Shown one piece after another: positions 9,975 through 57,330 of a stretch of DNA of 64,000 nt. The position numbers and the translations under genes were made by a program. The stretch spans positions 3,736 through 67,735 of the forward strand of contig DSEQ01000025.1 of NCBI GenBank assembly GCA_011056555.1. The letters are read 5' to 3'. The notes below the pieces were generated by a model, which was given only the letters and a program-made list of their open reading frames with translations, had not been told where the DNA came from and did not search any database. Each line of letters begins with the position of its first letter. Within the stretch, counting starts at the first letter, position 1. This DNA is from Candidatus Zixiibacteriota bacterium (GTDB lineage: Bacteria > Zixibacteria > MSB-5A5 > JAABVY01).

Positions 9975-9987
9975 ATTCGCATACTCC

Positions 9988-11202: not shown

Positions 11203-11219
11203 GGCTTCCGGCTGCTCCT

Positions 11220-32890: not shown

Positions 32891-33943
32891 TCAGCAGATT
32901 CTGGGAAGCTGTTCTCCGCTTAACATATCAACTATTCTTTCGGTGCCTATTCTGGTTTTTAATGTAACCAGACCCGATTCTTCTTTTGTAACCTTCCCGA
33001 TGATTGCGGGTGAAAAATCGTGATCAGCCGCATTGATAATCACAAGTGCTTTCCCAGCATCGCCGGGCTTAACAAACATGACAAAGCGCCCCTCATTGGC
33101 AACATAAATCGGATCAAACCCGAGCATTTCGCAGGCCCCGCGCACACCCTTGCTGATGATGATGGACTTCTCTTCCAATTCTATCCGGAATTTCGAACTG
33201 CGGGCAATTTCGACACAAGCTGTGGCCAGACCTCCGCGGGTAAGATCGCGCAGGCAGTGAATCTCGATGCCGGCTTCCAGCAGTTTCATGATAACATCTG
33301 AAAGGGATATACAATCGCTTTCTATTTCAGTATCGAACGACAGCCTCTCACGTTTTGCCATCACCGCCATTCCATGCCTTCCAATATCCCCGTTAAGGAT
33401 TACAGCATCCCCCGGCCTTATACTTGAGGGCCTGATATTCAAATCGTGTTCAATAATTCCGATTCCTGCCGTATTAATATAAATCTGGTCGCATTTACCT
33501 TTATCGACTACTTTCGTATCGCCGGTAATAATTTTAGCTCCGGCATTTGCAGCCTCCCTTCGCATCGACAGGCAGATTTTCCAGAGTGTCTCGATTTCCA
33601 GACCTTCTTCCAGAATAAATCCGACGCTTATATACAGGGGGCGCGCCCCGCTCATGGCCAGATCATTGACCGTACCGCAAACAGCCAGCTTGCCTATATC
33701 GCCGCCCGGAAAAAAGATCGGTTGTATGACATATGAATCGGTGGTATAAGCAAGCCTTCCAGACGGTGCATGAATAACCGCGCTGTCATGCTCGCTTTCA
33801 AGACTGGAAGAATAAAAGGCGGCTACAAAAAGCTTTTCTATCAACTCATGCATCAGGCGTCCACCGCCCCCATGAGCCATCCTGATATGCGGATATTTAT
33901 CTTTTGGAATGGGGCACTCTTTTTCTCTCGGGTCAGCATCCAT
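32891..33943 (-). CDS. hypE: hydrogenase expression/formation protein HypE
   Basis: AIR-synthase-related fold with the MAHGGGG N-terminal motif and the C-terminal conserved Cys tail (PRIC). Confidence 0.9.
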
Positions 33944-35053
33944 CTATTCAAGCCCTGTCTTTTGCAGATCCAACTTACGGTAGCTATAGTAAGCGCTGCA
34001 TGCGCCCTCGGAGGAAACCATTGTCGCCCCAAGCGGATTTTCGGGAGTACATCTGGTGCCAAATGCCGGACAGTCGAATGGTTTCCGTGTGCCTTTCAGA
34101 ATCTCAGCGCTAATACATTCCCCGCTTTGATCCGAAATATCATCGACTTTTCCGAATTTCTCCTCGGCATCATACTGTCTGTACTTATCGCTTATTGCAA
34201 GACCGCTGGATTCTATCATCCCAAGCCCGCGCCATCTTCTATCCACGATTGTCAATACATCTTCCATAACCCTGCGCGCCTCTGCATTTCCCTCTCGTTT
34301 TACCGAACGGGAATACTGATTTTCAACCATAGCTCTTCCATCCTCAAGCTGCGCTAAAGACATATATATTCCCTGGATGATATCCAGAGGCTCGAATCCG
34401 GTGACCACAATTGGAACACTATATCCTGCAGACAATTCCTCGTACTGTTCGAAGCCGCTGACAGTGCATACATGACCGGCCGCAAGAAAAGCGTCGACTT
34501 TATTATTATCTGATGACAATATCACTTCCATGGCCGGAGGAATCAGAACCATCGCAGATAAAACCGAGAAGTTCTCGAGTCCAACCAGACCGGCCTGAAG
34601 GATTGACATCGCATTGGCAGGCGCCGTGGTCTCAAATCCGATCCCGAAAAAGACTACTTCCTTGTCAGGATTTTCCTGTGCGATTCTGAGCGCGTCAAGA
34701 GGAGAATAGACTACACGAAGATCGCCCCCGGCAGACTTAACACTAAACAGATCTCCTGCTGATCCCGGCACGCGCATCATATCCCCGAATGAGCAGAATA
34801 TCACATTTTCGCGGCCGGCGATCTCGATTGCCTTGTCGATAATGCTGAGCGGGGTGACACAGACCGGGCATCCGGGGCCGTGCAAAAGCGTAATCCTGTC
34901 GGGCAAGAGCTGATCCAGCCCGTGTCTGACAATGGCATGGGTCTGTCCCCCGCAGACCTCCATTATGTTCCAGTCTCGGCTTGTTATGCTTTTTATTTTC
35001 TCTGCAAAAGCGGCCACAGCCCGGGGATTATGATATTCGTCGATATATTTCAT
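33944..35053 (-). CDS. hypD: hydrogenase formation protein HypD
   Basis: [10 protein letters not shown]..; motifs CGGQTH and [10 protein letters not shown]. Confidence 0.9.
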
Positions 35054-35301
35054 TGCCTGTCCGCCTCTTCCATCATGCCGTCAATTTCATCGAGATATTC
35101 AAAGACTCTCTGCGCCTCATCCTCATCAACCATGCTGATAGCAAAACCGGCATGCACAATCACGTAGTCACCAATATTAGCATCCGGTACAAGTGACAGG
35201 TTTATTTGCTTGATAACCCCGCCGAAATTGACACGGCCGGTGTGCATCAAAGAATCGTCTCTTTCAATGCCGATAATCTTTCCCGGTATGGCCAGACACA
35301 T
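35050..35301 (-). CDS. hypC: hydrogenase assembly chaperone HypC/HupF
   Basis: [10 protein letters not shown]-terminus; 83 aa; ATGA overlap with hypD. Confidence 0.85.
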
Positions 35302-35306
35302 TTATC

Positions 35307-37616
35307 TTACTCCATAGATTCTTCTCTGGAAACTGCCATAATCTGACCCAACGAGATCCCGCCGTCATTAGGTGGAACCAGGTTGTGCCAGTATGGCAGA
35401 AAGCCCTCTTTCTTCAGGCGGTCAACCGCTTTTTCGGTCAAATACTTGTTCTGGAAACATCCGCCCGAAAGCACGACACGCTTCTTCCCATAAATCTTCG
35501 CAATCTCAACAATCATCTCAGCCAGTGTATTATGAAATCTTGCGGCAATTCGGTTTATGGAAATATCTCTACCATAGTCCTTGTTGATGTCATTGATCAT
35601 CTTTTCCCAATCTATAATATGTATATCTCCCTTTCTGGCAAGATCAAATGAGTAGCTCCCGAGATCATCAGACTTCTCCGCCGCAAATTCCAGCAGCATG
35701 GCTGCCTCTCCCTCGAAGTCGATTTCGTGGCAAAGTCCGATTATTGAGGCGACCGCGTCAAACAGGCGTCCCATACTCGATGTTCGCGGGCAATTGATCT
35801 CATTTTTCAACGCGCCCAGGAGTGGCTGCTTCTGTTCCGGCCTGAACCTGTCCAGAGGATTATTCTTTTCCATCCCGATGATATCTCGTCCATAAAGCTC
35901 GTACATCATCCCCAGCGCCGACCGTCTGGGTCTCAAAATTGCCCTCTCACCGCCGGGAAGCGGGAATGTCCTCAGATGGGCAATTCGCTGGTACGATTTA
36001 CCATCAATAGCCAGAAACTCTCCGCCCCAGATAGTGCCATCCTCGCCATACCCGCTGCCATCCCAGGCCACACCCAGGACATCAGAACTCAGACCATTTT
36101 CTGCCATACAGCTCAGGATGTGCGCATGATGATGCTGCACCTGCAGCAGTGGAGGTCCGCTTTTCCCGGCATAAACTGTGGAATAATAATCGGGATGCTT
36201 GTCGCAGGCTATAATGTCGGGCTTGAATTCATAAATATCAGAAAGTGAATTTATGGTGTCATTGAATGTGTCGATAGAAAGTCTCGTATCCAGGTCACCT
36301 ATGTGCTGGCTCATGAAAACATTCTTGCCTGATGACAGGGCGATAGTATTTTTCTGATGTGCCCCCACTGACAGGCTCGGCCTGGAGGGTTCTTTCAGAT
36401 ATATCGGCAGCGGAGCATAACCGCGCGCTCGTCTGAGGACAAGCTCTCTTGCGGCCGCCACGCGCACGATTGAATCGTCCACATGTCTTGCAATCGGCCG
36501 GTTGTGCACAAGAAATAGATCAGCGACACCCGACAGTCTTGCGAGAGCTTCCTTTTCATCGGTACAGATCGGCTCCTCGGCCAAATTTCCGCTGGTGGCC
36601 ACAACCGGAATTTTCAATTTGTGCATCAAGATATGATGCAATGGTGTGTAGGGCAGCATGATCCCAAGATAGGGATTATCCGGCGCGATACCCTTGAGAG
36701 GCCGAGGTGTACTTTCCAGGCCAAACCGCTTTCGCTTCAGAAGCACAATCGGAGCCTCGGATGATGTCAGTAGTTTTCTTTCAAGCTCGCTGACCTCGCA
36801 CTCCTGTTCAACCATAGCTATATTGGGATACATGAGTGCAAAGGGCTTCTTCTTTCGGCTTTTCAAACTCCGCAACCGCCTGACCGCCTGATAATTCTGT
36901 GCATCGACTATCAGATGAAATCCCCCCAGACCTTTCAAAGCCAGTATTTCACCGCCCAAAACAGCTTCGCAGGCCAGATCCAGAGCCTCATTACGCAGCG
37001 CCAGAGCCTCCCCGGATTTATCCCACAATTCCAGATGCGGTCCGCATCGGGGGCAGGCATTGGGCTGGGCATGAAAACGACGATTTACAGGATTTTCATA
37101 TTCCTCGCGGCACTCGTCGCACATTTCAAAAATTTTCATCGTGGTCATGGCGCGGTCATAGGGCAGCCCTTCTATAATACTATAGCGCGGACCGCAGTTC
37201 GTGCAGTTTGTGAAGGGGTAAAGGTAATGCCTGTTTTCAGGATCGAATATTTCGCGCAGACAGTCCGGGCAGGTTGCGATATCCGGCAGGACCACAGCCG
37301 TTTTATCTCCTGATGATTGGCTGTCGATGATCCGAAAGCCGGTTTCATTTTTCGGATCGATGTACTTCCGCCCGATATCGTCTATTCTGGAATGAACGGG
37401 CCTTTCAGCTTTTAATAATTCCGGGAATGTTTCAATATTTTTGCTATCACCCTCCAGTTCGATTTCTACACCACCTGACGAGTTGTTTATCCATCCCGAT
37501 AATCCTAGTCTTGACGCCAGCCTATAGACTGTCGGACGAAAACCCACACCCTGGACAGCGCCGCTGATCCTGAGATTTACACGTTTGAGCTGTCTATTTG
37601 AAATATTTGCTTTCAT
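35307..37616 (-). CDS. hypF: carbamoyltransferase HypF
   Basis: Acylphosphatase domain, two Zn-finger CxxC pairs, YrdC and Kae1-like domains; 769 aa. Confidence 0.9.
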   Translation of the reverse strand: MKANISNRQLKRVNLRISGAVQGVGFRPTVYRLASRLGLSGWINNSSGGVEIELEGDSKNIETFPELLKAERPVHSRIDDIGRKYIDPKNETGFRIIDSQSSGDKTAVVLPDIATCPDCLREIFDPENRHYLYPFTNCTNCGPRYSIIEGLPYDRAMTTMKIFEMCDECREEYENPVNRRFHAQPNACPRCGPHLELWDKSGEALALRNEALDLACEAVLGGEILALKGLGGFHLIVDAQNYQAVRRLRSLKSRKKKPFALMYPNIAMVEQECEVSELERKLLTSSEAPIVLLKRKRFGLESTPRPLKGIAPDNPYLGIMLPYTPLHHILMHKLKIPVVATSGNLAEEPICTDEKEALARLSGVADLFLVHNRPIARHVDDSIVRVAAARELVLRRARGYAPLPIYLKEPSRPSLSVGAHQKNTIALSSGKNVFMSQHIGDLDTRLSIDTFNDTINSLSDIYEFKPDIIACDKHPDYYSTVYAGKSGPPLLQVQHHHAHILSCMAENGLSSDVLGVAWDGSGYGEDGTIWGGEFLAIDGKSYQRIAHLRTFPLPGGERAILRPRRSALGMMYELYGRDIIGMEKNNPLDRFRPEQKQPLLGALKNEINCPRTSSMGRLFDAVASIIGLCHEIDFEGEAAMLLEFAAEKSDDLGSYSFDLARKGDIHIIDWEKMINDINKDYGRDISINRIAARFHNTLAEMIVEIAKIYGKKRVVLSGGCFQNKYLTEKAVDRLKKEGFLPYWHNLVPPNDGGISLGQIMAVSREESME

Positions 37617-37656
37617 ATGCTTTTAAAATAAATCATACGGTTTGATCATTCCGTTA

Positions 37657-38154
37657 TCATGATAAATAAACCAGCTCATCGATCTCTTGCTTGATCTTGA
37701 TAATTACTTTGCTGATCGCAGGCTTGATCTCTTGTGAAAAACACTTTCCGTGCTCAAAATTCCTGCATTCGATACAATAGACAATCAATTTCTCGGGTAA
37801 ACTCTCCAGGGTTCGAGCAAGCTCGATCGCCTCTCTAAGATTAAATGTGTGTGTGGATAAACTCGAGGTGATGTCCTCGGGAATTTCCTCGTTTAATGCA
37901 TCAAATCGAAAAACTGTTCCGGGTTCACATCCGGAGCATACGGCATCCACAAAGAATACATGCTTTCGTTTCTTCCAATGTTCTATCAGTTTTGTGCTGT
38001 CCCCTACATCCTTTATATATCTTGTCCGATCAGGGTAAAGCTGGAAGATCTTTTTTGCTATCACCGGACCCACCGCATCATCAGAGCGGAATTCATTTCC
38101 GGCGCCTACCAAAAGGATAAGGTCTTCCTCCTGCATCGTAGCTACCTCACTCAC
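37657..38154 (-). CDS. hydrogenase maturation endopeptidase (HycI/HoxW family)
   Basis: [25 protein letters not shown]... with the conserved Asp/His metal ligands. Placed directly downstream of the large subunit. Confidence 0.75.
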
Positions 38155-39436
38155 GGTCTATGGTTAGCTTCAGGAAATGGCAGGAGCAGGAGATGCAGGG
38201 ATCGTAGTTGCGAACGGCCTGTTCACATTTCCAGGTTAACTCGTCATGGGACAGGTTCAGGTTCTTCGAGACAAATTCTGTAAGATCCTCTTCTACCGAT
38301 GATTGATTCTGTGAGGTTGGCGGAATAATTCTGGCATCTTTAATAATGCCATTCTTGTCAATCTGATAACGATGGTAGAGTGTCCCGCGAGGAGCTTCCG
38401 TGGCGCCATGCCCGACGCCTTCTTGTGGTTCTATCTCTATATATGGTTGATCCGGCATTTCACAACTGGCGATTATGCGGAGCGCCTCATCACAGGCGTA
38501 TAATGTCTCAACCGCCCTTACTATTATGCTTTTGAAGGGATTATTGCAGGTCTTGCTCAGGCCGGCTTCTTTGGCGGCCTCTTTTGAGATCTTTGAGAGT
38601 TTATTGAAATTAAGACTGTAACGCGCCATTGGCCCGGTCATGTACGAACCGCGCCCCTTTACAGAGGCCTGCAGCGAGGTGGAATGCTTGACGTGATGTT
38701 CCTCGAAATAATCCAGGAACTGTTCAACACCGATATCGATGCCCTTATTGGAGGCTATCCCGCCCTCATCAATGGGGTACTCGCTTTCATGACTCACGCT
38801 TACGAATTCATAATCCCGTTCAAAATCGGGGAAGTCAAAGGTCGAGACCCATTTTACAGTTTCCAGTGAAGCATCCCGTGCCCATTTCAATGGCTCAACC
38901 ATCTTCTGCAGTTCTTTCTTGTTGGGGACTTTATAAAATCCGCCGACCCGAATATTGATGGGATGGATTTCGCGGCCACCCATCAGGATCATCAGATCAT
39001 TGCCGATCTTCTTGAGCTTTAGGCCTCGTTTTACAACATCCGGGTAATCTTTTGCCATCCCGATCGCATCCTCATATCCCAGAAAATCGGGGGCATGCAG
39101 CATATAAATATGCAGGCCATGGCTTTCGATCCATTCACCGCAGTAAATCAGTCTTCTCAAATCGCGAAGCGGCCCCTCGACCTTGACACCGCAGGCCATC
39201 TCCATCGCATGGCAAGAGCTCATCATGTAGGCAATCGGGCAGATCCCGCAAATTCGGGCGGTGATATCCGGGGCCTCGGTGAATTTCCGTCCGCGCAGAA
39301 AAGCCTCGAAAAACCTGGGCGGCTCGAATATATTCAGCTTTGCTTCCTTAACCTCATCACCGCGGATTTTGACCTGAAGTCCACCCTCTCCCTCGACACG
39401 GGCCAGGTAATCCACCTTGATCGATTTACCTTTCAT
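38147..39436 (-). CDS. NiFe hydrogenase large subunit, group 3b (sulfhydrogenase alpha, HydA-type)
   Basis: N-terminal L1 motif [10 protein letters not shown] and C-terminal DPCISCSCH (DPCxxCxxH). About 430 aa, typical of group 3. Start at MKGKSIKV (an internal ATG of the listed ORF). Confidence 0.85.
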
Positions 39437-40205
39437 GAGCTTCACTCTCCTTCCGGAATGAATCGGCATAGGCATTAAAATTGCGGAAGAATCTGGTCAG
39501 GTCGTCTCTGGAAACATTGAGTTTTTTACACCATTCGGCCAGTGAATTTGTATTGGGTGTTTCCTTGGGTCCGAAGCATCCATAACAGCCCCGATTATAG
39601 GAGGGACACAATGCGCCGCATCCAGCCTGTGTCACCGGACCCAGGCAGGGAGTACCATGCGCGACCATCACGCAGATGTTACCCTTGCGCTTGCATTCCA
39701 TGCACACGCTGTAGGGCGGGATAATCGGCTTCCTGCCGATCAAAAAAGCGCTTACAACCTCGAGCAGCTGGTATTTATTGATAGGACAGCCGCGCAATTC
39801 GTAGTCCACAAATACATGATCTGAAATCGGCGTGGACTTGTTCAGGGTTACGATATATTCCGGGCTGGGGTAAACTATAGCAACAAAATCCTTCACATCG
39901 CTGAAATTTCTGAGCGCCTGTATTCCGCCCGCGGTGGCACAGGCGCCAATCGTCACCAGCACTTTGGAAGCCCTTCTTACCTTATGAATCCGCTCTGCAT
40001 CATGCGGTGTGGTAATCGAACCTTCCACCAGAGAAACATCATATGGACCCTTGATGACTGCACGGGAGGCCTCCGGGAAATTGGCAATCGTAATCTTATC
40101 CGCAACTGCCAGAAGTTCATCTTCACAGTCTAGAAGACTAAGCTGGCAGCCATCGCATGAGGCGAATTTCCATACCGCGAGTTTTGGTTTACGCTCCCTG
40201 GCCAT
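39426..40205 (-). CDS. NiFe hydrogenase small subunit, group 3 (sulfhydrogenase delta)
   Basis: N-terminal CDGCQ proximal-cluster motif plus further Cys ligands; 259 aa. Confidence 0.85.
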
Positions 40206-40206
40206 A

Positions 40207-41073
40207 TCAATACTCTCGCCTGGTGAAGATTTCTTTAATATCGGAGTACCTGAATACAGGGCCGTCTTTGCAGACGAATAACGGACCCATCTGGCAGTGT
40301 CCGCACAGGCCGATTCCGCATTTCATATTTCTTTCCATGGACACATAGATGTCCGCGGGTTCCACGCCACGTTTCTGGAGCCCCAGCGCGCTGAAGCGCA
40401 TCATGATCTCCGGCCCGCAGACCATAGCTGTGCAGTTTAGATGATCGAACGGCGCCCTTCCGATCAGATTGGTCACCACGCCGACATTACCGCGCCAGGA
40501 GCCAGTTCCGCGATCGACAGTTATATGAACTTCGAGGTCAAGACGGGATCGCCACTTTTCCAGTTCCTTTTGGTACAGGATATCGCTGGGAGTTCTGGCT
40601 CCGTATAACAATACGATCTTGCCGTAATTCTCTCTGTGTGCCAGGAGGTAATACATTACCGGGCGCAACGGGGCCATACCGATACCGCCGGCCACCAGGA
40701 CAACATCATTACCCTCGGCCTCTTCCACCGGCCAGCTCGTGCCCAACGGCCCGCGTACTCCAAGAGTGCGGCCCGATTTCAGGCTGTCCATAGCCTTGGT
40801 GACATTACCGACCGCACGGGTTGTATGCACCAGCTTCTCCGGTCTGGTAGGATCGCCGCTGATCGAAATCGGCACCTCCCCCACACCGAAGACATAGATC
40901 ATATTGAACTGCCCGGGCTTAAAATCGAACTTTTTCGGTCCGGAGACAGGCTTCAGTTCCATGGAAAATGTATCCACGGTATCGCGTCTGAAGCGCTGAA
41001 TCATGAACTGCCGGGGCATCATCGGATCATCTTTAAATCCGATTGCCTTTTTATTCTTTTGTATTTCCGCCAT
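40207..41073 (-). CDS. sulfhydrogenase gamma subunit (FAD/NAD(P)-binding, 2Fe-2S; DHOD electron-transfer-subunit-like)
   Basis: Alignable to Pyrococcus HydG (GVGEVPISI; C-terminal [16 protein letters not shown]...CKDGPVF). The start is uncertain (TTG 41130 / ATG 41073 / ATG 41022). Confidence 0.75.
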
Positions 41074-41518
41074 ACACATCAAATAGTTGCATTCGGGTTG
41101 CTTCCAGGCGCTGGGCCATGAGTCTGGCAAAACGCCTCATTAATTCATAACCGAGCTCGTGATCTTCATCCATTTTACCGCGCAGGCATTTACCGTCCAA
41201 TGCGATCGCTCTGGTTAATTCGACCGCGCGAGCGTCGAAATGCCAGCGATAGGGCGGTATCAACCATGACCAACCGGTGACATCCCCGGTTTCACGGGTC
41301 TGAATCGCTATCGGACCTTTTTGCGGGATATAAGTTTCAATTATAATCTTACCGTGCCTGATAAAATAGAAATGGTTAGCCTCGTCCCCTTCACGGAAAA
41401 GAAATTCATCCTTCTTGAAAACAACATTGGAGCCGCAGCCGGTAATAAAATCGATATGCCGTTGCTCCAATCCCTCCAGGAATGGATGCTCTTTTAGTAC
41501 TTTTGCCAGAGATTCCAT
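41051..41518 (-). CDS. stand-alone cyclic-nucleotide-binding (cNMP/CAP effector) domain protein with no DNA-binding domain, embedded in the hydrogenase operon
   Basis: FKKDEFLFREGDEANHFYFIRHGKIII...RETGDVTGW...RAVELTRAIAL beta-roll motif. RBS GAGGAA sits 7 nt upstream, only 4 nt after the beta-subunit stop. Confidence 0.7.
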   Translation of the reverse strand: MESLAKVLKEHPFLEGLEQRHIDFITGCGSNVVFKKDEFLFREGDEANHFYFIRHGKIIIETYIPQKGPIAIQTRETGDVTGWSWLIPPYRWHFDARAVELTRAIALDGKCLRGKMDEDHELGYELMRRFARLMAQRLEATRMQLFDVYGGNTKE

Positions 41519-41522
41519 AAAT

Positions 41523-42659
41523 CTATTCCTCTTTATCTGCCATTATTTTGCCTTTTCCTTCACTTTCCCTGATGGCCTGAACTTCCTCGGTAATATCGAT
41601 TCCCACCGGGCACCAGGTAATGCATCTGCCGCAACCGACACAGCCCGACATCCCGAATTGATCGATCCAACTCGCCAGTTTGTGAGTCAGCCATTGACGA
41701 TACCGAGCCTTGGCTGAAGTGCGCACACTTCCTCCGTATATATAGGAATGATCCAGTGTAAAACATGAATCCCATTTGCGCACACGTTTGGCCGAATTGA
41801 CCTCGAGGCCGGAGATGTCCTCGATGTTTATGCAGAAACAGGTTGGGCACACTAAAGTGCAATTGCCGCAATTCAAACATCTCTGCGCAACTACTTCCCA
41901 GCGGGAACTCTCGAAATTGCGGTAAAGCAGCTCCTTTATGTCGTCTGTATCGAGCCGCCGGCCCATTTTATTCTCGGCCTCTTTCATCAGCCGGTCGGCT
42001 GTCTCGATCGCATTTTGATCAGCTTCTTTGCCCTTGATCTCCTTCATGATTTTTTCGCCGGCCTTTGTACCGGATTCAATCAAGAAATAGTGACCGCTGT
42101 TGTCAACAATTTCCGTGATCGCCAGGTCAAATCCCTTGGTGGCCCTGGGACCAGTACCCATCGAGACACAGAAACAGGTGCCGCCCGGACGCACACAATT
42201 CACAGCAACAATGAAAATATTCTGTCGGCATCTTTCATAATCCGCATCCTTATACGGCCCTTCAAGAAGAATCTCATCCTGGATCCGGATCGCCTCGATT
42301 TCACAGGCGCGGACGCCGATAAATGCCCGTTTGTGGATTTCCTGCTTATTTTCCACAATCTCGAAGCCGTCACCTTTACGCTTCAGCTCAAACAGCTTCT
42401 TCTCAGGCGGATAAAGATATCTTTTCCAGGTATGCTGGCCGACAACATAATCAAAGTATTTCTTGCCGCCCGATTTTACCAGTCTATATCTTCCGCCGTC
42501 CTGTTCATCAGTATACCCAACCGGCAAATCATCCACGTTTGTAATTTCATCATATATAAGGGCCGAATTATCCAGGGTGGGACCGATTATTTGATATTTT
42601 TCTGAAATCAGCGTATCAAAAAGACTTTGCAGGTTACCACTTTCGAGAACCAGAATCAT
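41523..42659 (-). CDS. sulfhydrogenase beta subunit (4Fe-4S cluster protein, HydB-type)
   Basis: Cys clusters CLNCGNCTLVCPTCFC and CVGCGRCITWCP. First gene of the beta-gamma-delta-alpha order typical of group 3b. Confidence 0.8.
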   Translation of the reverse strand: MILVLESGNLQSLFDTLISEKYQIIGPTLDNSALIYDEITNVDDLPVGYTDEQDGGRYRLVKSGGKKYFDYVVGQHTWKRYLYPPEKKLFELKRKGDGFEIVENKQEIHKRAFIGVRACEIEAIRIQDEILLEGPYKDADYERCRQNIFIVAVNCVRPGGTCFCVSMGTGPRATKGFDLAITEIVDNSGHYFLIESGTKAGEKIMKEIKGKEADQNAIETADRLMKEAENKMGRRLDTDDIKELLYRNFESSRWEVVAQRCLNCGNCTLVCPTCFCINIEDISGLEVNSAKRVRKWDSCFTLDHSYIYGGSVRTSAKARYRQWLTHKLASWIDQFGMSGCVGCGRCITWCPVGIDITEEVQAIRESEGKGKIMADKEE

Positions 42660-42681
42660 CCGCCAAATCCTTCAATCGACA

Positions 42682-42699
42682 TTGTGATTTATTTCACAA
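42682..42699. promoter_or_regulatory. CRP/FNR-family-type operator TTGTGA-N6-TCACAA between a TTGACA-N17-TATTTT promoter and the hydB start
   Basis: Perfect TGTGA-N6-TCACA palindrome, 23-42 nt upstream of the hydB ATG. Confidence 0.55.
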
Positions 42700-42812
42700 T
42701 TTATACTCAAAATATGATTGTATTCATTGACTGTCAAGAAGAAAAATAGATTAATCTATTTCATGCTGTATCTGTTAGATACCGCATTCATGAGCTCACG
42801 GCAACAAGAACT

Positions 42813-43508
42813 TTAAATTATTCTTAGACCGGAAATTTTTACAGCCCCGCGATGATAACCATCGGGAAATAGTCTCTCAAGATCATCCAGATCGATTTTA
42901 TTATCTTCGCAGGTCTCATAAACGGTCGGAATCTCATTCTTTTTGGCAAACCTGTCTCGCAGATAATGTATTATCTGCCAGTGCCTTTCGGACAGTTTGC
43001 CGCCTGGGATTTTCATATCTGCAGCGCGATGGGCGGCCTAAAATTCATCCCAGTCATCGGGGTTGACCAAGAATCCGCGCACATCAACCTGGTATACTTT
43101 TTCGGTGGCAATCACATCGTAATCTTTTTCGGTCGTGGGCATGAAATTCTGGCCGAGATAACCCTGTTTATAGGTTACTCCCGCAATCCTGCAGGCCCCG
43201 CGAAGATAGCCGGATGGAAACAGTCGCAGCAGGTCACTGAGACCAAGTTTGCACATGCGGCATGTCTCATAAACTGTCGGGCATTTCCCTTTTTCTTGAA
43301 ACTCAAGCCTGACGTAATAAATCACATCCCAGTGCTCCTCGGTCAACTTGGGAGGCATGCCGAGCTGCATGGCAGTCCATTCGGCAAAATCCTCGTCCCA
43401 GATGAAGAAATCGATCAGAAAATCATGAGAGTCAACCGAGTAAGTCTTATCCTTATAATTTACAATGCTCATGACTGGCTCCTTGTTAAAATCCGAAAAA
43501 CGCAGCAT
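42813..43508 (-). CDS. two-domain (tandem) DsrC/TusE/DsvC-family protein lacking the C-terminal Cys arm; the second domain is interrupted by an in-frame TAG at 43038-43040
   Basis: Domain C (MSIVNYKDKTYSVD...LFPSGYLRGACRIAGV), a linker, then domain D (KVYQVDVRGFLVNPDDWDEF*AAHRAADMKIPGG...GLRII). The stop replaces a Phe/Tyr conserved in the three paralogous domains. Confidence 0.55.
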
Positions 43509-44165
43509 TAAACCAGCCGCAAACCGGCTATTTTTATAATGCCGCGATGATAGCCATCCGGGAAGAGACTCTCGAGTTCGTCAAATTCAAGGTTAAATTC
43601 TTCACAAGTCCTGTAAACTGTGGGAATTCCCCCGAATTCCCTGAAATAGGCCCGCACAAAACGGATGATTCTCCAGTGCTGATCGGTCAATTTCCCGTCG
43701 GGAATCTGGCTTTCCATTGCCCGGTGCGAGGCAAAATCCTCATCCCAGTCATCAGGATTCATCAAGAATCCGTGGACGTCAATAACATAAGTCTTCTCTT
43801 CAACATGGACTTCCTCTTCCTCGACCTCCTCGTAAGGAATCCTTCCCAGATTGGTCTGCCTGTAGCTCAATCCGGCCAGCTTACAGGCCCCTCTCTGATA
43901 GCCGCTGGGGAAAAGCTGGCTGAGATCCTTCAGACGCAAATTATTTTTTTCTGCAGGTTTGATATAAGAGAGGACACTGGCCCGTCTCCTCAAAGTTTTT
44001 CCTTATGAACTTTATTACTTCCCAGTGCCGGCCCGTCAACCCGCCGTCAATTCCAAGGGATTGTGCTATACCTTCGGCGAAGACATCGTCCCACTCGTCA
44101 TAATTCTCGAGAAAACCGGATTGATCGACTTTATATGTCTTGCCCTTATAGCTAAATGTCCTCAT
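43508..44165 (-). CDS. two-domain (tandem) DsrC/TusE/DsvC-family protein, paralog of the previous gene; the first domain is interrupted by a frameshift at an A7 homopolymer (43934-43940)
   Basis: Domain A (MRTFSYKGKTYKVDQSGFL...QTCRK) continues in the +1 frame (NNLRLKDLSQLFPSGYQRGACKLAGL...) into domain B (...HRGIIKIAGLRLV). The TAATG stop/start overlaps the next gene. Confidence 0.55.
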
Positions 44166-44279
44166 ACAAGGCTCCTTGCTAAGATATTAGTTCACATGCA
44201 ACCATTTGTCTTATCCATTGGTCGTCATCCTACGTAGAATCTGTATTTTTGCTTTCTAAGTTAATATCCTGGTGCGTTA

Positions 44280-44295
44280 TGTGATAATTTTCACA
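44280..44295. promoter_or_regulatory. CRP/FNR-family-type operator ATGTGA-N6-TCACAT about 115 nt upstream of the DsrC-like tandem genes
   Basis: Perfect TGTGA-N6-TCACA palindrome. Second copy of the motif seen at 42682-42699. Confidence 0.55.
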
Positions 44296-44374
44296 TTCTA
44301 TAAACAAACTATCACAATCCAGCCTTATGTCAAGCAAAAAGTAGATTACTCTAATAATTTTTGATCAATATTTC

Positions 44375-45172
44375 TCAGCTTATCTTTTTTTGGTGTCTAT
44401 TGCAGAAATATCCGGTCCGCCCGGAGAATTTTCGGCTCTCGATTTTGCCCTTGCATTGGGGACATTTGCGACCCGCTTCTCGATTTGGTAAGAGATATGA
44501 CCGCGGCATCTTCTGCGGGTCAACTTCGGCTTCAACAGCTTTATTGAGAACTGTCTTAAGCGCTTTGAAGATCTTCTTAACCTCTTTGTTACCAAGCTTT
44601 TCTGTCCTGCTGGCGGGGTGAATACCGGCTCTGAAGAGGATTTCATCAGAATAAATATTGCCAATCCCGGCCATCGACTTCTGATCCATCAATGCCGATT
44701 TTACCAAGCCCCGCTTCTTATCCATAATTTCTTTGAACTTGCCCAAATCGAAATCATCTTTCAAAACATCCGGGCCGATATCGTTCTCCGCAGCAAAATC
44801 CTCTAACCCCTTCGCAATATCGACCTTTCCGAGCTTGCGCTGATTATCATAAGCCAGCTTATAGCCATTGGCGAAATTGAATATCACTCTTGCGTGATCG
44901 GGTTCCTGGTCTTCATTCTTGTAATATTTCAAGAAACCGGTCATACCGAAATGCAGCACCAGCCAGGCATTTTTTTCGAATCTGACAAACATGTACTTTC
45001 CCCGCCGCTCGGTTTCTTTGAACTTCCTGCCTTTCAATTTCATCTGCAGGCTGCGGGCGCTATGAGCACCAAGCACATCTTTGTCACGGACTTCGACCTT
45101 CTCGATCTTTCTATTCAATGCGGTCCTGTTAAGATATTTTCTAAAAACCTCGACGTCAGGTAATTCCGGCAT
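44375..45172 (-). CDS. mutM: formamidopyrimidine-DNA glycosylase (Fpg/Nei family)
   Basis: N-terminal PELPDVE (catalytic Pro2, Glu3); H2TH; C-terminal zinc finger CPQC...C..H. Confidence 0.85.
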   Translation of the reverse strand: MPELPDVEVFRKYLNRTALNRKIEKVEVRDKDVLGAHSARSLQMKLKGRKFKETERRGKYMFVRFEKNAWLVLHFGMTGFLKYYKNEDQEPDHARVIFNFANGYKLAYDNQRKLGKVDIAKGLEDFAAENDIGPDVLKDDFDLGKFKEIMDKKRGLVKSALMDQKSMAGIGNIYSDEILFRAGIHPASRTEKLGNKEVKKIFKALKTVLNKAVEAEVDPQKMPRSYLLPNREAGRKCPQCKGKIESRKFSGRTGYFCNRHQKKIS

Positions 45173-50279: not shown

Positions 50280-50948
50280 CTAAGCGTTCTTCTTTCGTGA
50301 GACCTGCTCGCGCAGCCAGTCACACCAGAGATTAAGGTTGTCTCCTGTGCGGCAGGAAATGCGCATGATATGCAGGCTGCCATTGATCTGCCGGGCATTC
50401 TTTTCAGCTTTATCGATATCGAAATCGGATAATCCCAGAAGATCGATCTTGTTTATCACCAGGGCTGATGACTTTCGAAACATGGCCGGGTACTTGAGCG
50501 GTTTATCATCCCCCTCGGTGGTACTGATCAGAACCACTTTCATATCCTCTCCCAGATCAAACCCGGATGGACATACCAGATTGCCCACATTTTCTATGAA
50601 AAGCAGATCGAGAGAATCGGTATCTATCTTCTCTAAGGCTTTGCCCAGCATGCGCGCATCCAGATGGCAGGCGCCCCCGGTTATAATCGGGCGGACAATT
50701 TTTCCGCCCGCACGCTCGAGCCTTATGGCGTCGTTCTCGGTCTGGACATCTCCTGCGATCAGGCCAATCCTGAATTCATCTTTCAAAAGCGAAAGCGTTT
50801 TTTCCAGCAGGCTTGTTTTGCCTGATCCCGGGGAGCTCACAAGGTTTAATGCCAATATTTTTCTTGCTCCCAGATCTTTTCTTATCTGAGCCGCCAGCTT
50901 ATCATTTTCAGACAGCACTTTTTCTTCTACCTGCACTCTCTCAGCCAT
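50280..50948 (-). CDS. hypB: hydrogenase nickel incorporation GTPase HypB
   Basis: GSGKT P-loop, CH motif, G-domain; 222 aa. Confidence 0.9.
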   Translation of the reverse strand: MAERVQVEEKVLSENDKLAAQIRKDLGARKILALNLVSSPGSGKTSLLEKTLSLLKDEFRIGLIAGDVQTENDAIRLERAGGKIVRPIITGGACHLDARMLGKALEKIDTDSLDLLFIENVGNLVCPSGFDLGEDMKVVLISTTEGDDKPLKYPAMFRKSSALVINKIDLLGLSDFDIDKAEKNARQINGSLHIMRISCRTGDNLNLWCDWLREQVSRKKNA

Positions 50949-50969
50949 GTTTTCCTCAATACTTCAATG

Positions 50970-51311
50970 CTACTCAAAAGTCAGATGTGTAATTATCAGT
51001 TCCTCACCCTTGCGGACTTCCACTTCGTAAGATCCGCACCCGGGACAGATAAAAACAAATTCATCAATTATAAACTCTCTGCCGCATGACCGGCAAACAG
51101 CCTCGATCGAAACAGTCTCGATTTTCAACTCTGTCCCCGAAAGCTCCGTTTCTTTCTTCAACATATCAAAGGCAAAGCGCAGCGATTCCGGGTCGATACA
51201 ACTCAATTTTCCGACTTTGACTCCGATCTCTTTTAAGACGTTGAAATTACGGCTCTGCATCTCCTGTTGGGAAAAACTGATTATCTCCCGGGCCACTCTC
51301 ATTTCATGCAC
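50970..51311 (-). CDS. hypA: hydrogenase nickel insertion protein HypA (probable GTG start giving MHEM...)
   Basis: MHE N-terminus and two CxxC pairs (CRSCG, CPGCG). Confidence 0.8.
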   Translation of the reverse strand: MHEMRVAREIISFSQQEMQSRNFNVLKEIGVKVGKLSCIDPESLRFAFDMLKKETELSGTELKIETVSIEAVCRSCGREFIIDEFVFICPGCGSYEVEVRKGEELIITHLTFE

Positions 51312-51434
51312 GCTGATATCCCGCTTGCAGCTTTTTATCTCCAAGCTACCGACGGGTAGGATATTGTCAAATGAAAAAATGTAATGACAGAATTATAAAT
51401 ATATCAGCCCGAAAACAGGAGGTCTGGAATGTTT

Positions 51435-53435: not shown

Positions 53436-54878
53436 ATGGGTAATATGAAATGCTTCTGGAAGATATTTGTTGCGCTTTTGGCTTTGCTTTTAGTGTCGTG
53501 CGGTGGTCATGACAGATCCTCGGACGTCAAAGAAGTAAACCTGGATCTTGCTGCGATCAAAAAAAGCGGATCTCTGAGGGCTATAACCACCTATGGCGCC
53601 ACCAGCTACTTCATATATCGCGGGCGGCCGATGGGGTATGAATATGAGCTCTTGACACGTCTGGCCGAGCATCTCAATCTCAATCTGGAAATAGTGATTG
53701 CCAAAAATCTCGACAGCCTGATAAGCATGCTGAAAAAGGGCGATGGCGATATCATAGCTCATGGCCTGGCAATAACCCGGCAGAGAAAAGAACGGGTAGC
53801 ATTCGCCACCCCTCACACCGTCACCCGTCAGGTTCTGGTGCAGAGGCTGCCCGAAAACTGGCGCGATATGAAGCTGCACGAGATAGAAGACGCCCTGATC
53901 CGCAATCCGATAGATTTGATCGGCAAAAAAGTGCACGTGCGCAGAAATACGTCCTATTACCAGCGCCTTATTAATCTTTCCGAGGAGATAGGGGACGAAA
54001 TCGATATCGAACTTGCCCCGGGCGATCTTGCCACCGAGGATTTGATAGCAATGGTGGCTGAAGGGGAGATCGATTATACTGTCGCTGATCAATATATAGC
54101 GGCTATAAACAAGACCTATTATCCCGACCTCGATATAAAAACCGTCATAAGTTTTCCTCAGCGCATAGCCTGGGCTATCCGTAAATCCTCGCCGCAGTTA
54201 CTGGAAGCGGTAAATGACTGGATTTACGAAATGAAGAAGGGGCTGGATTATCATGTTTTATATAACAAATATTTCAAGAACACAAAGGCCTTCAAACGGC
54301 GTAAAGAATTCTCTTCATACCCCGGGGGCAGGATTTCGGCCTATGATGATCAGATCAAGAAGCATGCCGCTATGCTTAATTGGGACTGGAGCCTGCTGGC
54401 TTCCATGATTTATCAGGAATCGAGATTCGATCCCGAGACGGAATCATGGGCTGGTGCAAAAGGCCTGATGCAGCTCATGCCTGCCATGACCGAGCGATTC
54501 GGGTTAGAGGACCCATCCGATCCGCAAGAAAACATTGAAGCCGGTACCAGGTATCTTCTCTACCTAAAGGAGCTGTGGGGAATAATCCCGGACAGTCTGG
54601 AACGCATAAAGTTCATCCTGGCCTCATATAATGTGGGCGAAAATCATGTCAGTGACGCCCGGCGGCTGGCCGATAAATATGGCGCCGACCCTGATCTCTG
54701 GGAAGGAAATGTCGCCAAATACCTGCGCCTGAAATCGAAGAAAAAATATTATAACGATGCAGTGGTAAAATACGGTTACTGCCGAGGCGATGAGCCGTAC
54801 AAATATGTCAAGGAGATATTTGAAAGATACGAGCACTACCGCAGGGTGATTGAGTTTAATTCAAAGCCGGGGACTTAG
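53436..54878 (+). CDS. mltF: membrane-bound lytic murein transglycosylase F-like lipoprotein (SBP_bac_3 domain + SLT domain)
   Basis: Lipobox LLVSCGG; periplasmic binding domain; SLT catalytic region (ESRFDPETESWAGAKGLMQLMP). Confidence 0.8.
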   Translation: MGNMKCFWKIFVALLALLLVSCGGHDRSSDVKEVNLDLAAIKKSGSLRAITTYGATSYFIYRGRPMGYEYELLTRLAEHLNLNLEIVIAKNLDSLISMLKKGDGDIIAHGLAITRQRKERVAFATPHTVTRQVLVQRLPENWRDMKLHEIEDALIRNPIDLIGKKVHVRRNTSYYQRLINLSEEIGDEIDIELAPGDLATEDLIAMVAEGEIDYTVADQYIAAINKTYYPDLDIKTVISFPQRIAWAIRKSSPQLLEAVNDWIYEMKKGLDYHVLYNKYFKNTKAFKRRKEFSSYPGGRISAYDDQIKKHAAMLNWDWSLLASMIYQESRFDPETESWAGAKGLMQLMPAMTERFGLEDPSDPQENIEAGTRYLLYLKELWGIIPDSLERIKFILASYNVGENHVSDARRLADKYGADPDLWEGNVAKYLRLKSKKKYYNDAVVKYGYCRGDEPYKYVKEIFERYEHYRRVIEFNSKPGT

Positions 54879-55474
54879 TTTCTTTTCTTGCCGAATTTCG
54901 AAAGGTAGTCAACCACGCCGTCAGTGGTCGGTTTCATGCCTTGCCTGCCTTCTTCCCAGTTGGCCGGACAGACATTGCCGCTCTTCTCATGAAACCTGAG
55001 GGCATCAACCATGCGAAGCGCTTCCGGGATGCTCCGTCCGAGCGCATTGTCATTGACTACACAATGGCGAATGATACCTTCCTTATCTATCAGGAACAGT
55101 CCCCTGAGGGCGGTTCCATCGCTCAGAAGCACGCCGTAGTCCCGGGCGATGTTTTTTTTGAGGTCGGACACCAGGGGATAGCGAATCTGACCTATACCGC
55201 CCTGATCGACCGCGGTCTTTTTCCAGGCCAGGTGGGTATACTCGGAATCCACTGAGACACCTACCACCTCGGTCTCCCTCTCCCTGAATTTATCCAGAGC
55301 CTCTTCGAAAGCCAAAATCTCCGAGGGGCAGACGAAAGTGAAGTCAAGCGGATAAAAGAACAGTATTACATACATGCCGCGCATGGATGAGAGATTGAAT
55401 CTGGCAAAGCTGTTATCGCCCATGACAGCGGTGGCTATGAAATCGGGGGCCTCTTTGGTCACCAAGAATGACAT
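54875..55474 (-). CDS. peroxiredoxin (typical 2-Cys Prx, AhpC/TSA family)
   Basis: Peroxidatic Cys motif FTFVCPSEI and a resolving Cys near the C-terminus (VCPANW). Confidence 0.9.
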   Translation of the reverse strand: MSFLVTKEAPDFIATAVMGDNSFARFNLSSMRGMYVILFFYPLDFTFVCPSEILAFEEALDKFRERETEVVGVSVDSEYTHLAWKKTAVDQGGIGQIRYPLVSDLKKNIARDYGVLLSDGTALRGLFLIDKEGIIRHCVVNDNALGRSIPEALRMVDALRFHEKSGNVCPANWEEGRQGMKPTTDGVVDYLSKFGKKRN

Positions 55475-55493
55475 TTAAATATCCTGTCTATGC

Positions 55494-55524
55494 AAATCCA
55501 TGCCGGTCATCCCGGCATGGATTT
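55494..55524. other. 13-bp perfect stem-loop (aaatccatgccgg-tcatc-ccggcatggattt) between the small ORF and prx
   Basis: Read directly. No U-run, so it is probably an intercistronic RNA structure rather than a terminator. Confidence 0.4.
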
Positions 55525-55570
55525 ATTTCCAGATTAAATTCATGACGCTATCCTGCGCCCTCTCAGATCT

Positions 55571-55744
55571 TTAGTCGTTCTGAGGATTGGCGGATTCGTC
55601 GACGCAGATCATCTTAAGCTGATCTTCATTACCCTGATCAATATGCTTCAGGGAGTCGACCGGGCAAAGGTAAGTATTGCCTGAATCGGCCTTGATCCAC
55701 TTTACGCTCAATTCTTTCTTGAACTCTTTCATCTCTTCTGTCAT
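55571..55744 (-). CDS. unlisted 57-aa small protein (MTEEMKEFKKELSVKWIKADSGNTYLCPVDSLKHIDQGNEDQLKMICVDESANPQND) between trx and prx
   Basis: ATG preceded by RBS AAGGAG at 8-nt spacing. Coding-like composition. Co-oriented inside the trx-prx oxidative-stress operon. Confidence 0.5.
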   Translation of the reverse strand: MTEEMKEFKKELSVKWIKADSGNTYLCPVDSLKHIDQGNEDQLKMICVDESANPQND

Positions 55745-55839
55745 GCCATTTCTCCTTTTTCTAATTATTGATTCTTCGCAGCATTGCGAATATTTTTAAA
55801 ATAGATAAACCTCTTTAATTTTTAGATGGTTCCCGGCAA

Positions 55840-56211
55840 TTATTCCATTTCTTCCTGATTCTCGATATGGGCCCGCACCTCATCCATATCCACCCCCATA
55901 GCCTGATTAACCACACCCTCCAGACCGGACTCATCCAGATAACCGGGCTGCATGAAAAGCATAATCTCATCCCTGAAGAGAATTAACGTGGGGATATGCT
56001 CCACCCCCAGTTTGTCGGTTGCCTCCTTCTGCTCCTGAGTATTGAGCTTTGCGAAGGTATATTCAGGAAATTTCTCCGCCACTTTTTCAAAAACCGGTTG
56101 AAATTCCTTACAGGCTCCACACCAGGGGGCCCAGCAGTCAATCACAAGGATTTCTGAATTAGAAAGCAGCTCATTGAAATTTTCTTTAGTCAGATTAATC
56201 AGGTTCATCAT
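55840..56211 (-). CDS. trx: thioredoxin (active site WCGAC)
   Basis: Thioredoxin fold motif VIDCWAPWCGACKEFQP; 123 aa. Confidence 0.85.
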   Translation of the reverse strand: MMNLINLTKENFNELLSNSEILVIDCWAPWCGACKEFQPVFEKVAEKFPEYTFAKLNTQEQKEATDKLGVEHIPTLILFRDEIMLFMQPGYLDESGLEGVVNQAMGVDMDEVRAHIENQEEME

Positions 56212-56306
56212 ATCCCTTCTAATGTACTAGCTCGGTAACCCGGATAATACCGCATTGGTTCCGGCGAAAAGAAAATAAAAATAGAAAAAAACTCTTGACA
56301 AACAGG

Positions 56307-56316
56307 AGTAATTACT
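56307..56316. promoter_or_regulatory. perfect palindrome AGTAATTACT inside the divergent trx/perR promoter region (candidate PerR/Fur-type box), adjacent to TTGACA at 56295
   Basis: Read directly. AT-rich dyad resembling PerR-box half-sites (TTATAAT-N-ATTATAA-like). Confidence 0.35.
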
Positions 56317-56336
56317 AAATAGTAGCTGTTGGCAAA

Positions 56337-56816
56337 ATGGCAGAAGATCAACTACAATCATTTTTAAATCGCTGCCGGGAGCATGGGCTCAAGATCACTC
56401 CCCAGCGCACGGCCATATATGAAATGCTCTGCGGTTCGCGGAAGCATCCCACGGCCGAGCATATATATGCGGAAATCAGGAATAGCTATCCGAATATCTC
56501 ATTTGATACTGTTAATCGAACCCTGAAAACATTCGCAGAGATCGGCCTGACCGGCGTAGTCGAGGGTCACGGCGGGCCGCGCCGTTACGATCCCAACCTT
56601 GAGAGCCACCATCATATCCATTGTGTCCGATGCCGTGAGATATTTGATTTTCAGAGCGACGAGCTGGATAACCTGGAAATCCCGCCGGAAATCAAACAAG
56701 AATATAGAATTTTAAACAAGAGAGTTGTACTGAATGCGGTATGCAGGAGATGCCGCAGAAGGAGCCATATCAAAAAGCAGAGGCAGAAAAAAGGAGCAAG
56801 CAATGAGCAAGACTGA
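56337..56816 (+). CDS. perR: Fur-family transcriptional regulator (PerR-like)
   Basis: Winged-helix N-terminus; HHHIHC and CxxC (CVRCREI, CRRC) metal sites. Its 3' end overlaps the rubrerythrin start by 14 nt. Confidence 0.8.
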   Translation: MAEDQLQSFLNRCREHGLKITPQRTAIYEMLCGSRKHPTAEHIYAEIRNSYPNISFDTVNRTLKTFAEIGLTGVVEGHGGPRRYDPNLESHHHIHCVRCREIFDFQSDELDNLEIPPEIKQEYRILNKRVVLNAVCRRCRRRSHIKKQRQKKGASNEQD

Positions 56817-57330
56817 TGAAAACCTGAAAGCCGCTTTTGCGGGAGAATCCCAGGCCCGCAACAAATACACCTTTTTTGCCCAGGTGGCCAGGAAAGAGGG
56901 CCTGCATTACATCGCCAAGATCTTTGAGGAAACCGCCGAGAACGAAAAGCGTCACGCCAAGGATGAATTTGTGCTGTTGGATGGTCTCGGCGATACGGCG
57001 GCCAATCTGGATGAGGCCATCAACGGCGAGCAGTACGAAACCATCACCATGTATCCCGAGTTCGCTGAACAGGCCAAGGAAGACGGCAATATGGCGGCCG
57101 CCCGGCTTTTTATGCAGATTGCCAAAGTGGAAGCGCATCATCGCGACCGCTACCGGAAATTACTGGAAAGAGTAAAAAACGGTACCGTCTATAAGCGTGA
57201 TGAGCCGATCAAATGGAAATGCAGTGTCTGCGGTTATATCCATGAAGGCACCCAGCCTCCCGGAAAATGCCCCTGCTGCCAGCATCCCAAAGAATATTAC
57301 GAACCGGCGGACATGGAAACCGATATTTAG
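56803..57330 (+). CDS. rbr: rubrerythrin
   Basis: Di-iron ferritin-like EX(n)H motifs plus a C-terminal rubredoxin-like CSVCG...CPCC. Start at MSKTDENLKAAF. Confidence 0.9.
   Translation: MSKTDENLKAAFAGESQARNKYTFFAQVARKEGLHYIAKIFEETAENEKRHAKDEFVLLDGLGDTAANLDEAINGEQYETITMYPEFAEQAKEDGNMAAARLFMQIAKVEAHHRDRYRKLLERVKNGTVYKRDEPIKWKCSVCGYIHEGTQPPGKCPCCQHPKEYYEPADMETDI

Follow-up and report, generated by a model that had tools for sequence, protein, structure and literature searches.

Two palindromic boxes in a hydrogenase locus

The window analyzed here is a stretch of 64,000 nucleotides (nt) from Candidatus Zixiibacteriota bacterium (MSB-5A5; JAABVY01), corresponding to forward-strand positions 3,736-67,735 of contig DSEQ01000025.1 in assembly GCA_011056555.1. 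It carries the operon of a group 3b-like [NiFe] hydrogenase (32891-42659) and two DsrC-like genes (42813-44165), and each of these units is preceded by a palindromic box with the core TGTGA-N6-TCACA. An earlier note on this DNA had pointed out both boxes and proposed that they are sites at which a CRP/FNR-family regulator, encoded elsewhere, controls hydrogenase and sulfur-relay genes together. An exact search confirmed the two cores at 42683-42698 and 44280-44295 and, as the note had said, found no others in the window; 0.04 occurrences are expected, and none of 100 shuffles reached two. Both boxes are intergenic, and the intergenic share of the window is only about 5.4 kb. Cores with one or two mismatches are at chance level, with 24 found versus 21.9 expected. 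Allowing up to two mismatches in the core or up to four in the 18-mer revealed no further regulon members in the 64 kb, the remaining matches lying at chance level inside open reading frames (ORFs).

Extended to 18 bp, the boxes read TTGTGATTTATTTCACAA (box 1, 42682-42699) and ATGTGATAATTTTCACAT (box 2, 44279-44296) on the plus strand. All genes around them are on the minus strand, and on that strand the two putative operators read TTGTGAAATAAATCACAA and ATGTGAAAATTATCACAT, respectively. Upstream of the hydrogenase gene hydB, the gene strand displays TTGACA, 17 nt, TATTTT, gagtataaa, box 1, 8 nt, the ribosome-binding site GAAGGA (42668-42673), another 8 nt, and the ATG at 42659, with box 1 starting 9 nt after the −10 hexamer and lying 24 nt upstream of the ATG. 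The hydB promoter (42709-42737) thus has its −35 hexamer at 42737-42732 and its −10 hexamer at 42714-42709. The earlier note had located box 1 between this promoter and the ribosome-binding site, and a consensus scan also calls the promoter, with 10 of 12 matches.

A 209-nt gap, here called IG2, separates fpg (44375-45172) from the first DsrC-like ORF and contains box 2. A promoter of the DsrC array, identified by manual reading and a regular-expression table, is proposed at 44306-44333 on the minus strand, with a −35 hexamer TTGACA (44333-44328), a 16-nt spacer and an extended −10 element TGaTAGTTT (TG at 44314-44313, hexamer at 44311-44306). Box 2 begins 9 nt after this candidate −10 hexamer; from its end, it is 113 nt to the first DsrC-like ATG (44165). 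In both promoters, which have the form TTGACA / 16-17 nt / TAnnnT, the box centre is found at about +11 relative to the predicted start, which is where a repressor would bind and differs from the positions of CRP/FNR activators of class I or II. Neither the consensus scan nor manual reading detected an alternative promoter downstream of box 2, which would turn this box into an activator site. The DNA of box 2 is identical in two independent assemblies, L001, whose contig is identical to the window and was the source of gene calls, and L002. We rejected a reading of the boxes as intrinsic terminators, since they follow promoters and no T-run comes after them.

When IG2 is aligned with the hydB promoter region (IG1) and its orthologues, the arrangement is colinear and comprises a TAGA..TCTA palindrome, CTTTTTGCTTGACA, TAnnnT after 16 nt, a further 9 nt and the box; the CTTTTTGCTTGACA of IG2 is identical to that of the orthologous locus L008. 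With the box masked, the similarity between IG1 and IG2 was reached in 0 of 2000 shuffles. On this alignment, the two boxes are paralogous parts of one duplicated promoter-operator module of about 90 bp, and therefore the count of two versus 0.04 expected overstates their independence. Although IG1 and IG2 share only 62% identity overall, each retains intact −35 and −10 hexamers and an intact 5+5 core, which speaks for selection on the box in either copy. In the related loci L006 and L008, the hydB promoter comes directly after fpg, and DsrC genes are missing from this place. This adjacency and the homology of IG1 and IG2 indicate that the DsrC cassette was inserted together with the duplication of the promoter-operator module. 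The shared regulon of the earlier note thus holds insofar as both units carry one common control element, but the boxes are not two independently recruited sites.

A second palindrome, AAATAGAT-TA-ATCTATTT (18 bp; 42744-42761, minus strand), ends 6 nt before the −35 hexamer of hydB and is conserved in L006-L008. The version in L006, AAATAGAC-CA-GTCTATTT, displays a symmetric change (GAC..GTC), and a degenerate second copy is found in IG2 at about 44337-44353. As an RNA hairpin, this palindrome reaches only −4.5 kcal/mol; it may serve as a second protein site, as a weak terminator of the preceding gene or as a UP-like element.

Conservation and classes of the sites

About 100 loci (designated by L numbers) were fetched as a comparison set. 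The closest genomes in the species collection, which are Zixibacteria and 'Ignavibacteria' metagenome-assembled genomes, have HydB proteins that are 82, 77, 76, and 55% identical to that of the window, and a HydB profile search of metagenomes yielded 80 loci with HydB identities of 52-62%. In L006, L007, and L008 (HydB 76-82% identical), a perfect box is found at a matching distance, 24-25 nt from the hydB ATG. Their alignment shows the 18-mer to be invariant except for one spacer base; the hexamers are kept as TTGACA or ATGACA and TAnnnT, and the ribosome-binding site is conserved as well, whereas the bases in between diverge. Such a pattern is a classical phylogenetic footprint of box 1, a comparison that the earlier note had suggested. 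L009, with a HydB identity of 55%, has the degenerate box TTGTGACTTAAGTCGCAT. Among the 80 metagenome loci, a perfect box upstream of hydB is present in five, and a near-perfect one in several more.

Scanning 0.97 Mb of non-redundant hydrogenase and DsrC loci for perfect core boxes returned 17, versus 0.7 expected. With the exception of that in L092, all perfect boxes whose neighbours were examined are intergenic and lie in or beside a hydrogenase or hyp cluster. The main support for the boxes as genuine, selected regulatory sites, in line with the earlier note, comes from this conservation in orthologous and distant hydrogenase promoters. The perfect box of L092 (TTGTGATTTTTTTCACAT, L092:14857-14872), in the complete Zixibacteria genome CP070766.1, is situated between a gene for a 109-aa protein and a dockerin-domain gene.

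The sites fall into two classes. Class A comprises both window boxes and those of L006-L008, L018, L031, L095/096, and L092, as well as those of L097 and L100, which are upstream of hdrCBA-mvhDGA. It has the form TTGTGAA-W4-(T/A)TCACA(A/T) and, where a promoter is recognizable, is placed 3-12 nt after the −10 hexamer of a TTGACA / 16-17 nt / TAnnnT promoter. The full layout of −35, 16-17 nt, −10, 3-12 nt and the 18-bp box occurs in eight promoters from at least five lineages (the window twice, L006, L007/L008, L018, L031, and L095). The boxes of the Hdr-Mvh-double-DsrC clusters, TTGTGAATTATTTCACAT (L097:735-752) and TTGTGAATGAATTCACAT (L100:1947-1964), agree with the Rex consensus discussed below and lie about 330-350 nt upstream of hdrC; the short ORFs running across them have no Pfam match and are probably spurious.

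Class B comprises the sites L037:113, L063:1708, L066:1233, L075:9272 (before hypC), and L030:16583 (before a gene with a cyclic nucleotide monophosphate (cNMP)-binding domain). These have the form yTGTGAy, a GC-rich spacer, then ATCACAc, and are found in the company of 3b hydrogenase and hyp clusters of other lineages. In L037, L063, and L066, the site is positioned 19 nt before a TGTAAT-like −10 hexamer, with its centre near −40. Two class B loci contain orthologous CRP/FNR regulators (L063:9733-10485 and L075:1855-2607; cNMP_binding plus HTH_Crp_2, with a CRP-type RETVxR recognition helix) that share 48% sequence identity.

Candidate regulators of the boxes

The repressor Rex, a sensor of the NADH/NAD+ ratio, binds sites that overlap promoters, and hydrogenases are often part of its regulons. 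The class A consensus equals, letter for letter and with an A/T spacer, the generalized Rex operator consensus TTGTGAANNNNTTCACAA of Ravcheev et al. 2012, in the form in which passages of PMC5317091 and PMC6391272 quote it. Box 1 agrees with this consensus at 13 and box 2 at 11 of the 14 specified bases, while the boxes of L018, L031, and L095 agree at all 14. The geometry of Rex operators, over or directly after the core promoter, is seen in the eight promoters mentioned above, given their predicted starts. Known Rex operators (Streptomyces coelicolor, Bacillus subtilis, Staphylococcus aureus, Thermotoga maritima, and Caldicellulosiruptor) resemble those of the window in being 18-bp TTGTGAA-N4-TTCACAA palindromes with an A/T spacer, in their placement over or just after the promoter, and in their targets, which are hydrogenases or NAD(P)H-linked redox enzymes. 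The S. aureus site is TTGTGAAW4TTCACAA (PMC2883068), and a crystallized T. maritima operator has a TTGTGAT half-site like that of the window boxes (PMC8836258). In Caldithrix abyssi, a member of a related phylum, a predicted site of this kind stands before a [FeFe]-hydrogenase operon headed by rex itself (PMC5317091). In the window, HydG contains an NAD_binding_1 domain and the hydrogenase subunits have their best matches among NAD(P)H-dependent sulfhydrogenases; a group 3b enzyme linked to NAD(P) would be a logical target for an NADH-sensing regulator.

We consider it very likely that the boxes are functional operators of a repressor, and, with moderate confidence, we take Rex to be the regulator of the window boxes. 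Here, repression, the NADH signal, and the identity of the regulator are inferred. One dimeric repressor would bind each box, just downstream of the −10 hexamer of a strong sigma-70-type promoter, covering roughly +3 to +20 and blocking RNA polymerase binding or promoter escape. One copy of the module would drive the group 3b-like NAD(P)-linked hydrogenase and hyp operon, the other the two double DsrC-like genes inserted between fpg and hydB; as the module is present twice, the hydrogenase operon and the DsrC-like genes would answer to one signal. A build-up of NADH would cause Rex to leave its operator, so that hydrogenase would be made and reducing equivalents disposed of or rebalanced. If so, an uncultured phylum, Zixibacteria and their relatives, would control cytoplasmic H2-cycling enzymes by an NADH-sensing switch known from Firmicutes, Actinobacteria, and Thermotogae. 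This would yield a testable rule that tells when these bacteria, which abound in sediments, produce H2 and when they consume it. The promoter duplication is a clean example of a new gene cassette wired into an existing regulon. The most likely mechanism, a Rex-type redox repressor acting on hydrogenase promoters, is already known in kind, here in a phylum where it has not been described: our literature search turned up no paper that connects Rex with Zixibacteria and group 3b hydrogenases, nor a description of a Rex target such as the present one, a group 3b [NiFe] hydrogenase together with double DsrC-like genes in a Zixibacteria-like phylum.

Several observations weigh against Rex or against parts of the scheme. 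Both window boxes have TGTGAT rather than TGTGAA in one half-site. To look for regulator genes, we compared essentially all genes of the window with Pfam and searched every ORF of all loci by phmmer, using Rex, CRP, and FNR as queries. Neither the 64-kb window nor any of the approximately 100 fetched loci yielded a rex gene with a Rex query that had been validated. The −10 hexamer of the DsrC-array promoter is weak (3/6 plus the extended TG) and falls below the threshold of the consensus scanner, and the hydB transcription start at about 42702, roughly 7 nt after the −10 hexamer, is a prediction only. Both DsrC-like genes under box 2 are interrupted, and its promoter may now be regulating pseudogenes. 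Finally, the core TGTGA-N6-TCACA is common to CRP-type sites, and the motif alone cannot separate the families.

The last point bears on the proposal of the earlier note that a CRP/FNR-family regulator (of the HcpR, CooA or CRP type) binds both boxes, which, given their position, it would do as a repressor. The core of the boxes is the exact CRP-type consensus: the sites of E. coli CRP (TGTGA-N6-TCACA) and of the Desulfovibrio HcpR type (TTGTGA-N6-TCACAA) have the same 5+5 core and spacing, and repression from downstream of the −10 hexamer is possible for the CRP family (discussed in bioRxiv 10.1101/172254). CRP/FNR-linked class B sites also stand in front of homologous hydrogenase clusters in other lineages; three of these (L037, L063, and L066) place the box in a class II-like position, two clusters with perfect boxes (L063 and L075) include bona fide regulator genes, and the L030 box is directly upstream of a cNMP-domain gene. 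Because CRP/FNR genes are physically linked to class B boxes, this alternative keeps real weight. However, the boxes tied to CRP/FNR genes belong to a different class than those of the window: their position 7 is C or T, their spacer is GC-rich and they are placed as activator sites would be. Overall genome GC is similar (0.52-0.56), so that composition does not explain the difference. An activator position (near −41.5 or −61.5) is seen only in L037, L063, and L066; the window boxes, at about +11, are downstream of the −10 hexamer of promoters with consensus −35 and −10 elements that need no activator, and their spacer and positions 7/12 follow the Rex pattern.

The distribution of regulator genes points the same way. 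As the earlier note had supposed, the regulator is not encoded in the window: the searches described above found neither rex nor a full-length CRP/FNR gene there, and the regulators present are a sigma-54 activator, histidine kinases and a Fur/PerR-like protein. CRP/FNR genes are absent from all class A loci and were found only in class B loci. The note had also taken the HTH-less cNMP-binding protein encoded in the hydrogenase operon as a hint of a CRP-type regulon. A homologue of this cNMP-only protein follows hydB in at least 62 of the 69 loci with enough sequence, whether a box is present or not, and the protein shares no more than 21-24% identity with the sensor domains of the cluster-linked regulators; its presence is therefore no evidence for such a regulon. 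Of the CRP/FNR proposal, the match of the core stands, whereas the repressor position and the Rex-type 18-bp consensus make this family our second choice, and we regard it as unlikely.

We find it improbable that the boxes are bound by a regulator other than Rex or CRP/FNR. Within this group, the double DsrC-like proteins, or a regulator from some unknown family, are a very remote candidate. Proteins of the DsrC family have a helix-turn-helix-like motif, and one with two domains could read a two-fold symmetric site; double DsrC genes lie within many class A hydrogenase clusters (the window, L095, L097, and L100), and some family members show faint precomputed matches to LexA_DNA_bind. Allochromatium DsrC reportedly binds dsr promoter DNA. 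However, the box persists in L006 and L008, where no DsrC gene adjoins it, the window boxes stay perfect though both copies of the gene are interrupted, and the 14/14 match to the Rex consensus would have to be a coincidence.

The palindromes could also act as RNA, with no protein operator involved. Each would then fold into a hairpin (stem 6-7 bp, loop 6 nt) at the extreme 5′ end of its mRNA and stabilize the transcript or modulate translation. A start about 7 nt after the −10 hexamer would indeed put both boxes in the 5′ end of the transcript; their predicted folding energies are −6.3 and −5.3 kcal/mol (z about −4.3 versus shuffles), the outer pairing is kept by symmetric changes (T..A in box 1, A..T in box 2), and the change in L009 is compatible with G-U pairing. 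Nevertheless, the GTGA/TCAC stem is invariant across promoters whose HydB proteins are 52-82% identical, where an RNA stem should co-vary; the window and L006-L008 have two mismatched A residues at positions 7/12; the motif of class B promoters is upstream of the −10 hexamer and is not transcribed; and the sequence is a known protein-binding consensus. A primary role as RNA is therefore very improbable. A known RNA element was rejected, as Rfam has no match over the region.

The hydrogenase operon and the double DsrC-like genes

Based on Pfam, NCBIfam, and PDB matches and on the gene calls of L001, the hydrogenase and maturation operon on the minus strand consists of hydB (41523-42659), the gene for the cNMP-only protein of 155 aa (41051-41518), hydG (40207-41130), hydD (39426-40205), hydA (38147-39475), hycI (37657-38154), hypF (35307-37616), hypC (about 35050-35301), hypD (33944-35053), and hypE (32891-33943). 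HydB is AsrA-like, HydG is an AsrB-like FAD/NAD-binding protein that has an Fe-S domain next to NAD_binding_1, and the small and large subunits are closest to those of sulfhydrogenases, in keeping with a group 3b [NiFe] hydrogenase. Sulfhydrogenases I and II of Pyrococcus and Thermococcus (HydBGDA/ShyBCDA) have the same four subunits in equal order and with equal domains, and are the best PDB and NCBIfam matches for all four. Unlike the Thermococcales enzymes, the window subunits score far below the equivalog cut-offs; the window enzyme is a homologue and not the same equivalog. A further difference is that the archaeal reference operons are described with four subunits only, whereas nearly all bacterial relatives sampled add the 155-aa cNMP protein between hydB and hydG, and this protein may be an unrecognized fifth subunit or an effector-binding or sensor module.

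The four DsrC-like ORFs of the window are two genes, each coding for two DsrC-like domains. Copy 1 (43508-44165, minus strand) contains a +1 frameshift at an A7 run (about 43941-43960); after removal of one A, it aligns end to end with intact 219-aa homologues. Copy 2 (42813-43508, minus strand) is broken by an in-frame TAG codon (43038-43040) in place of a conserved aromatic residue (Tyr/Phe). L001 and L002, two independent assemblies, have identical sequences for this interrupted DNA, and the interruptions are therefore not random sequencing errors; pseudogenes, phase variation or recoding are possible explanations. The short contigs L003-L005 end inside the tandem array. A search for homologues of the double protein gave 1531 matches, many labelled Zixibacteria, and intact 219-aa forms are common among them.

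PF04358 is detected twice in each double protein, indicating the DsrC/TusE/RspA fold. The defining motif of DsrC is a C-terminal arm AGLPKPTGC(V/A) with CysA, usually plus CysB (PMC8477390). This arm is absent from both domains: domain 1 ends in GAC(R/K)(I/L)AG, followed by a linker, and domain 2 ends in KI(A/S)GLR(L/I)(V/I). Desulfovibrio DsrC aligns with domain 1 up to GACK(M/L)AG, and domain 1 thus keeps CysB, the first of the two C-terminal cysteines of DsrC; the family has extra conserved cysteines (CPxVYETC) as well as the conserved GAC cysteine. Unlike DsrC, TusE, and RspA, these proteins have two domains fused in about 219 aa and lack the CysA arm that defines DsrC and TusE function, and, unlike DsrC and TusE, they are encoded in hydrogenase or Hdr clusters and not with dsrAB or tusBCD. 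With no CysA in either domain and both window copies interrupted, the 'sulfur-relay' label of the earlier note is weak.

In other loci, the double DsrC-like gene is the last gene of the 3b operon (L009:11374-12033) or lies between hycI and hypF of a 3b cluster (L095:10001-10660, in L095/096), and two to four tandem copies flank hdr(CB)A-mvhDGA-hycI in L090:9253-11392, L097:9244-10660, L098:9256-10660, L099:1532-2188 and 9209-11342, and L100:9243-11392. The genes of L092 and L093 do not adjoin a hydrogenase. Judging from gene order, co-expression of the family with cytoplasmic hydrogenases would be recurrent, by promoter duplication in the window and by operon membership elsewhere.

A speculative extension, which we consider rather doubtful, is that in Zixibacteria-like bacteria the double DsrC-like proteins are dedicated partners of cytoplasmic [NiFe] hydrogenases, serving AsrAB-like HydBG and HdrABC-MvhADG as a thiol/disulfide or persulfide electron acceptor or as a redox-sensing subunit. 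If this were true, the 'sulfhydrogenase' and the bacterial Hdr-Mvh complexes would have a natural protein substrate, and the shared operator would tie synthesis of the DsrC-like protein to that of the enzyme under one redox signal. The occurrence of this widespread family in group 3b and Hdr-Mvh clusters suggests an unrecognized protein partner, which is a more novel lead than the operator and may matter more.

In L093 (10001-14360), two double DsrC genes flank a SIR2-family gene and a gene for a 734-aa fusion of Aminotran_5 (cysteine-desulfurase-like) with AIRS/AIRS_C (SelD/ThiL-like), a context that hints at sulfur or selenium trafficking for some members of the family.

Elsewhere in the window, hypA and hypB (50280-51344, minus strand) lie 8 kb from the hyd-hyp operon, with genes for a PEP synthase/PPDK-like protein, an M50 protease, and a metallo-beta-lactamase-fold protein, as well as fpg, in between. 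In L007 (3740-4771), hypA and hypB are directly upstream of the hydB promoter, so the hypB-hydB region is rearranged among close relatives. An oxidative-stress cluster at 54875-57330 encodes an AhpC-type peroxiredoxin, a thioredoxin, and the Fur/PerR-like regulator, whose gene overlaps the start of a rubrerythrin gene.

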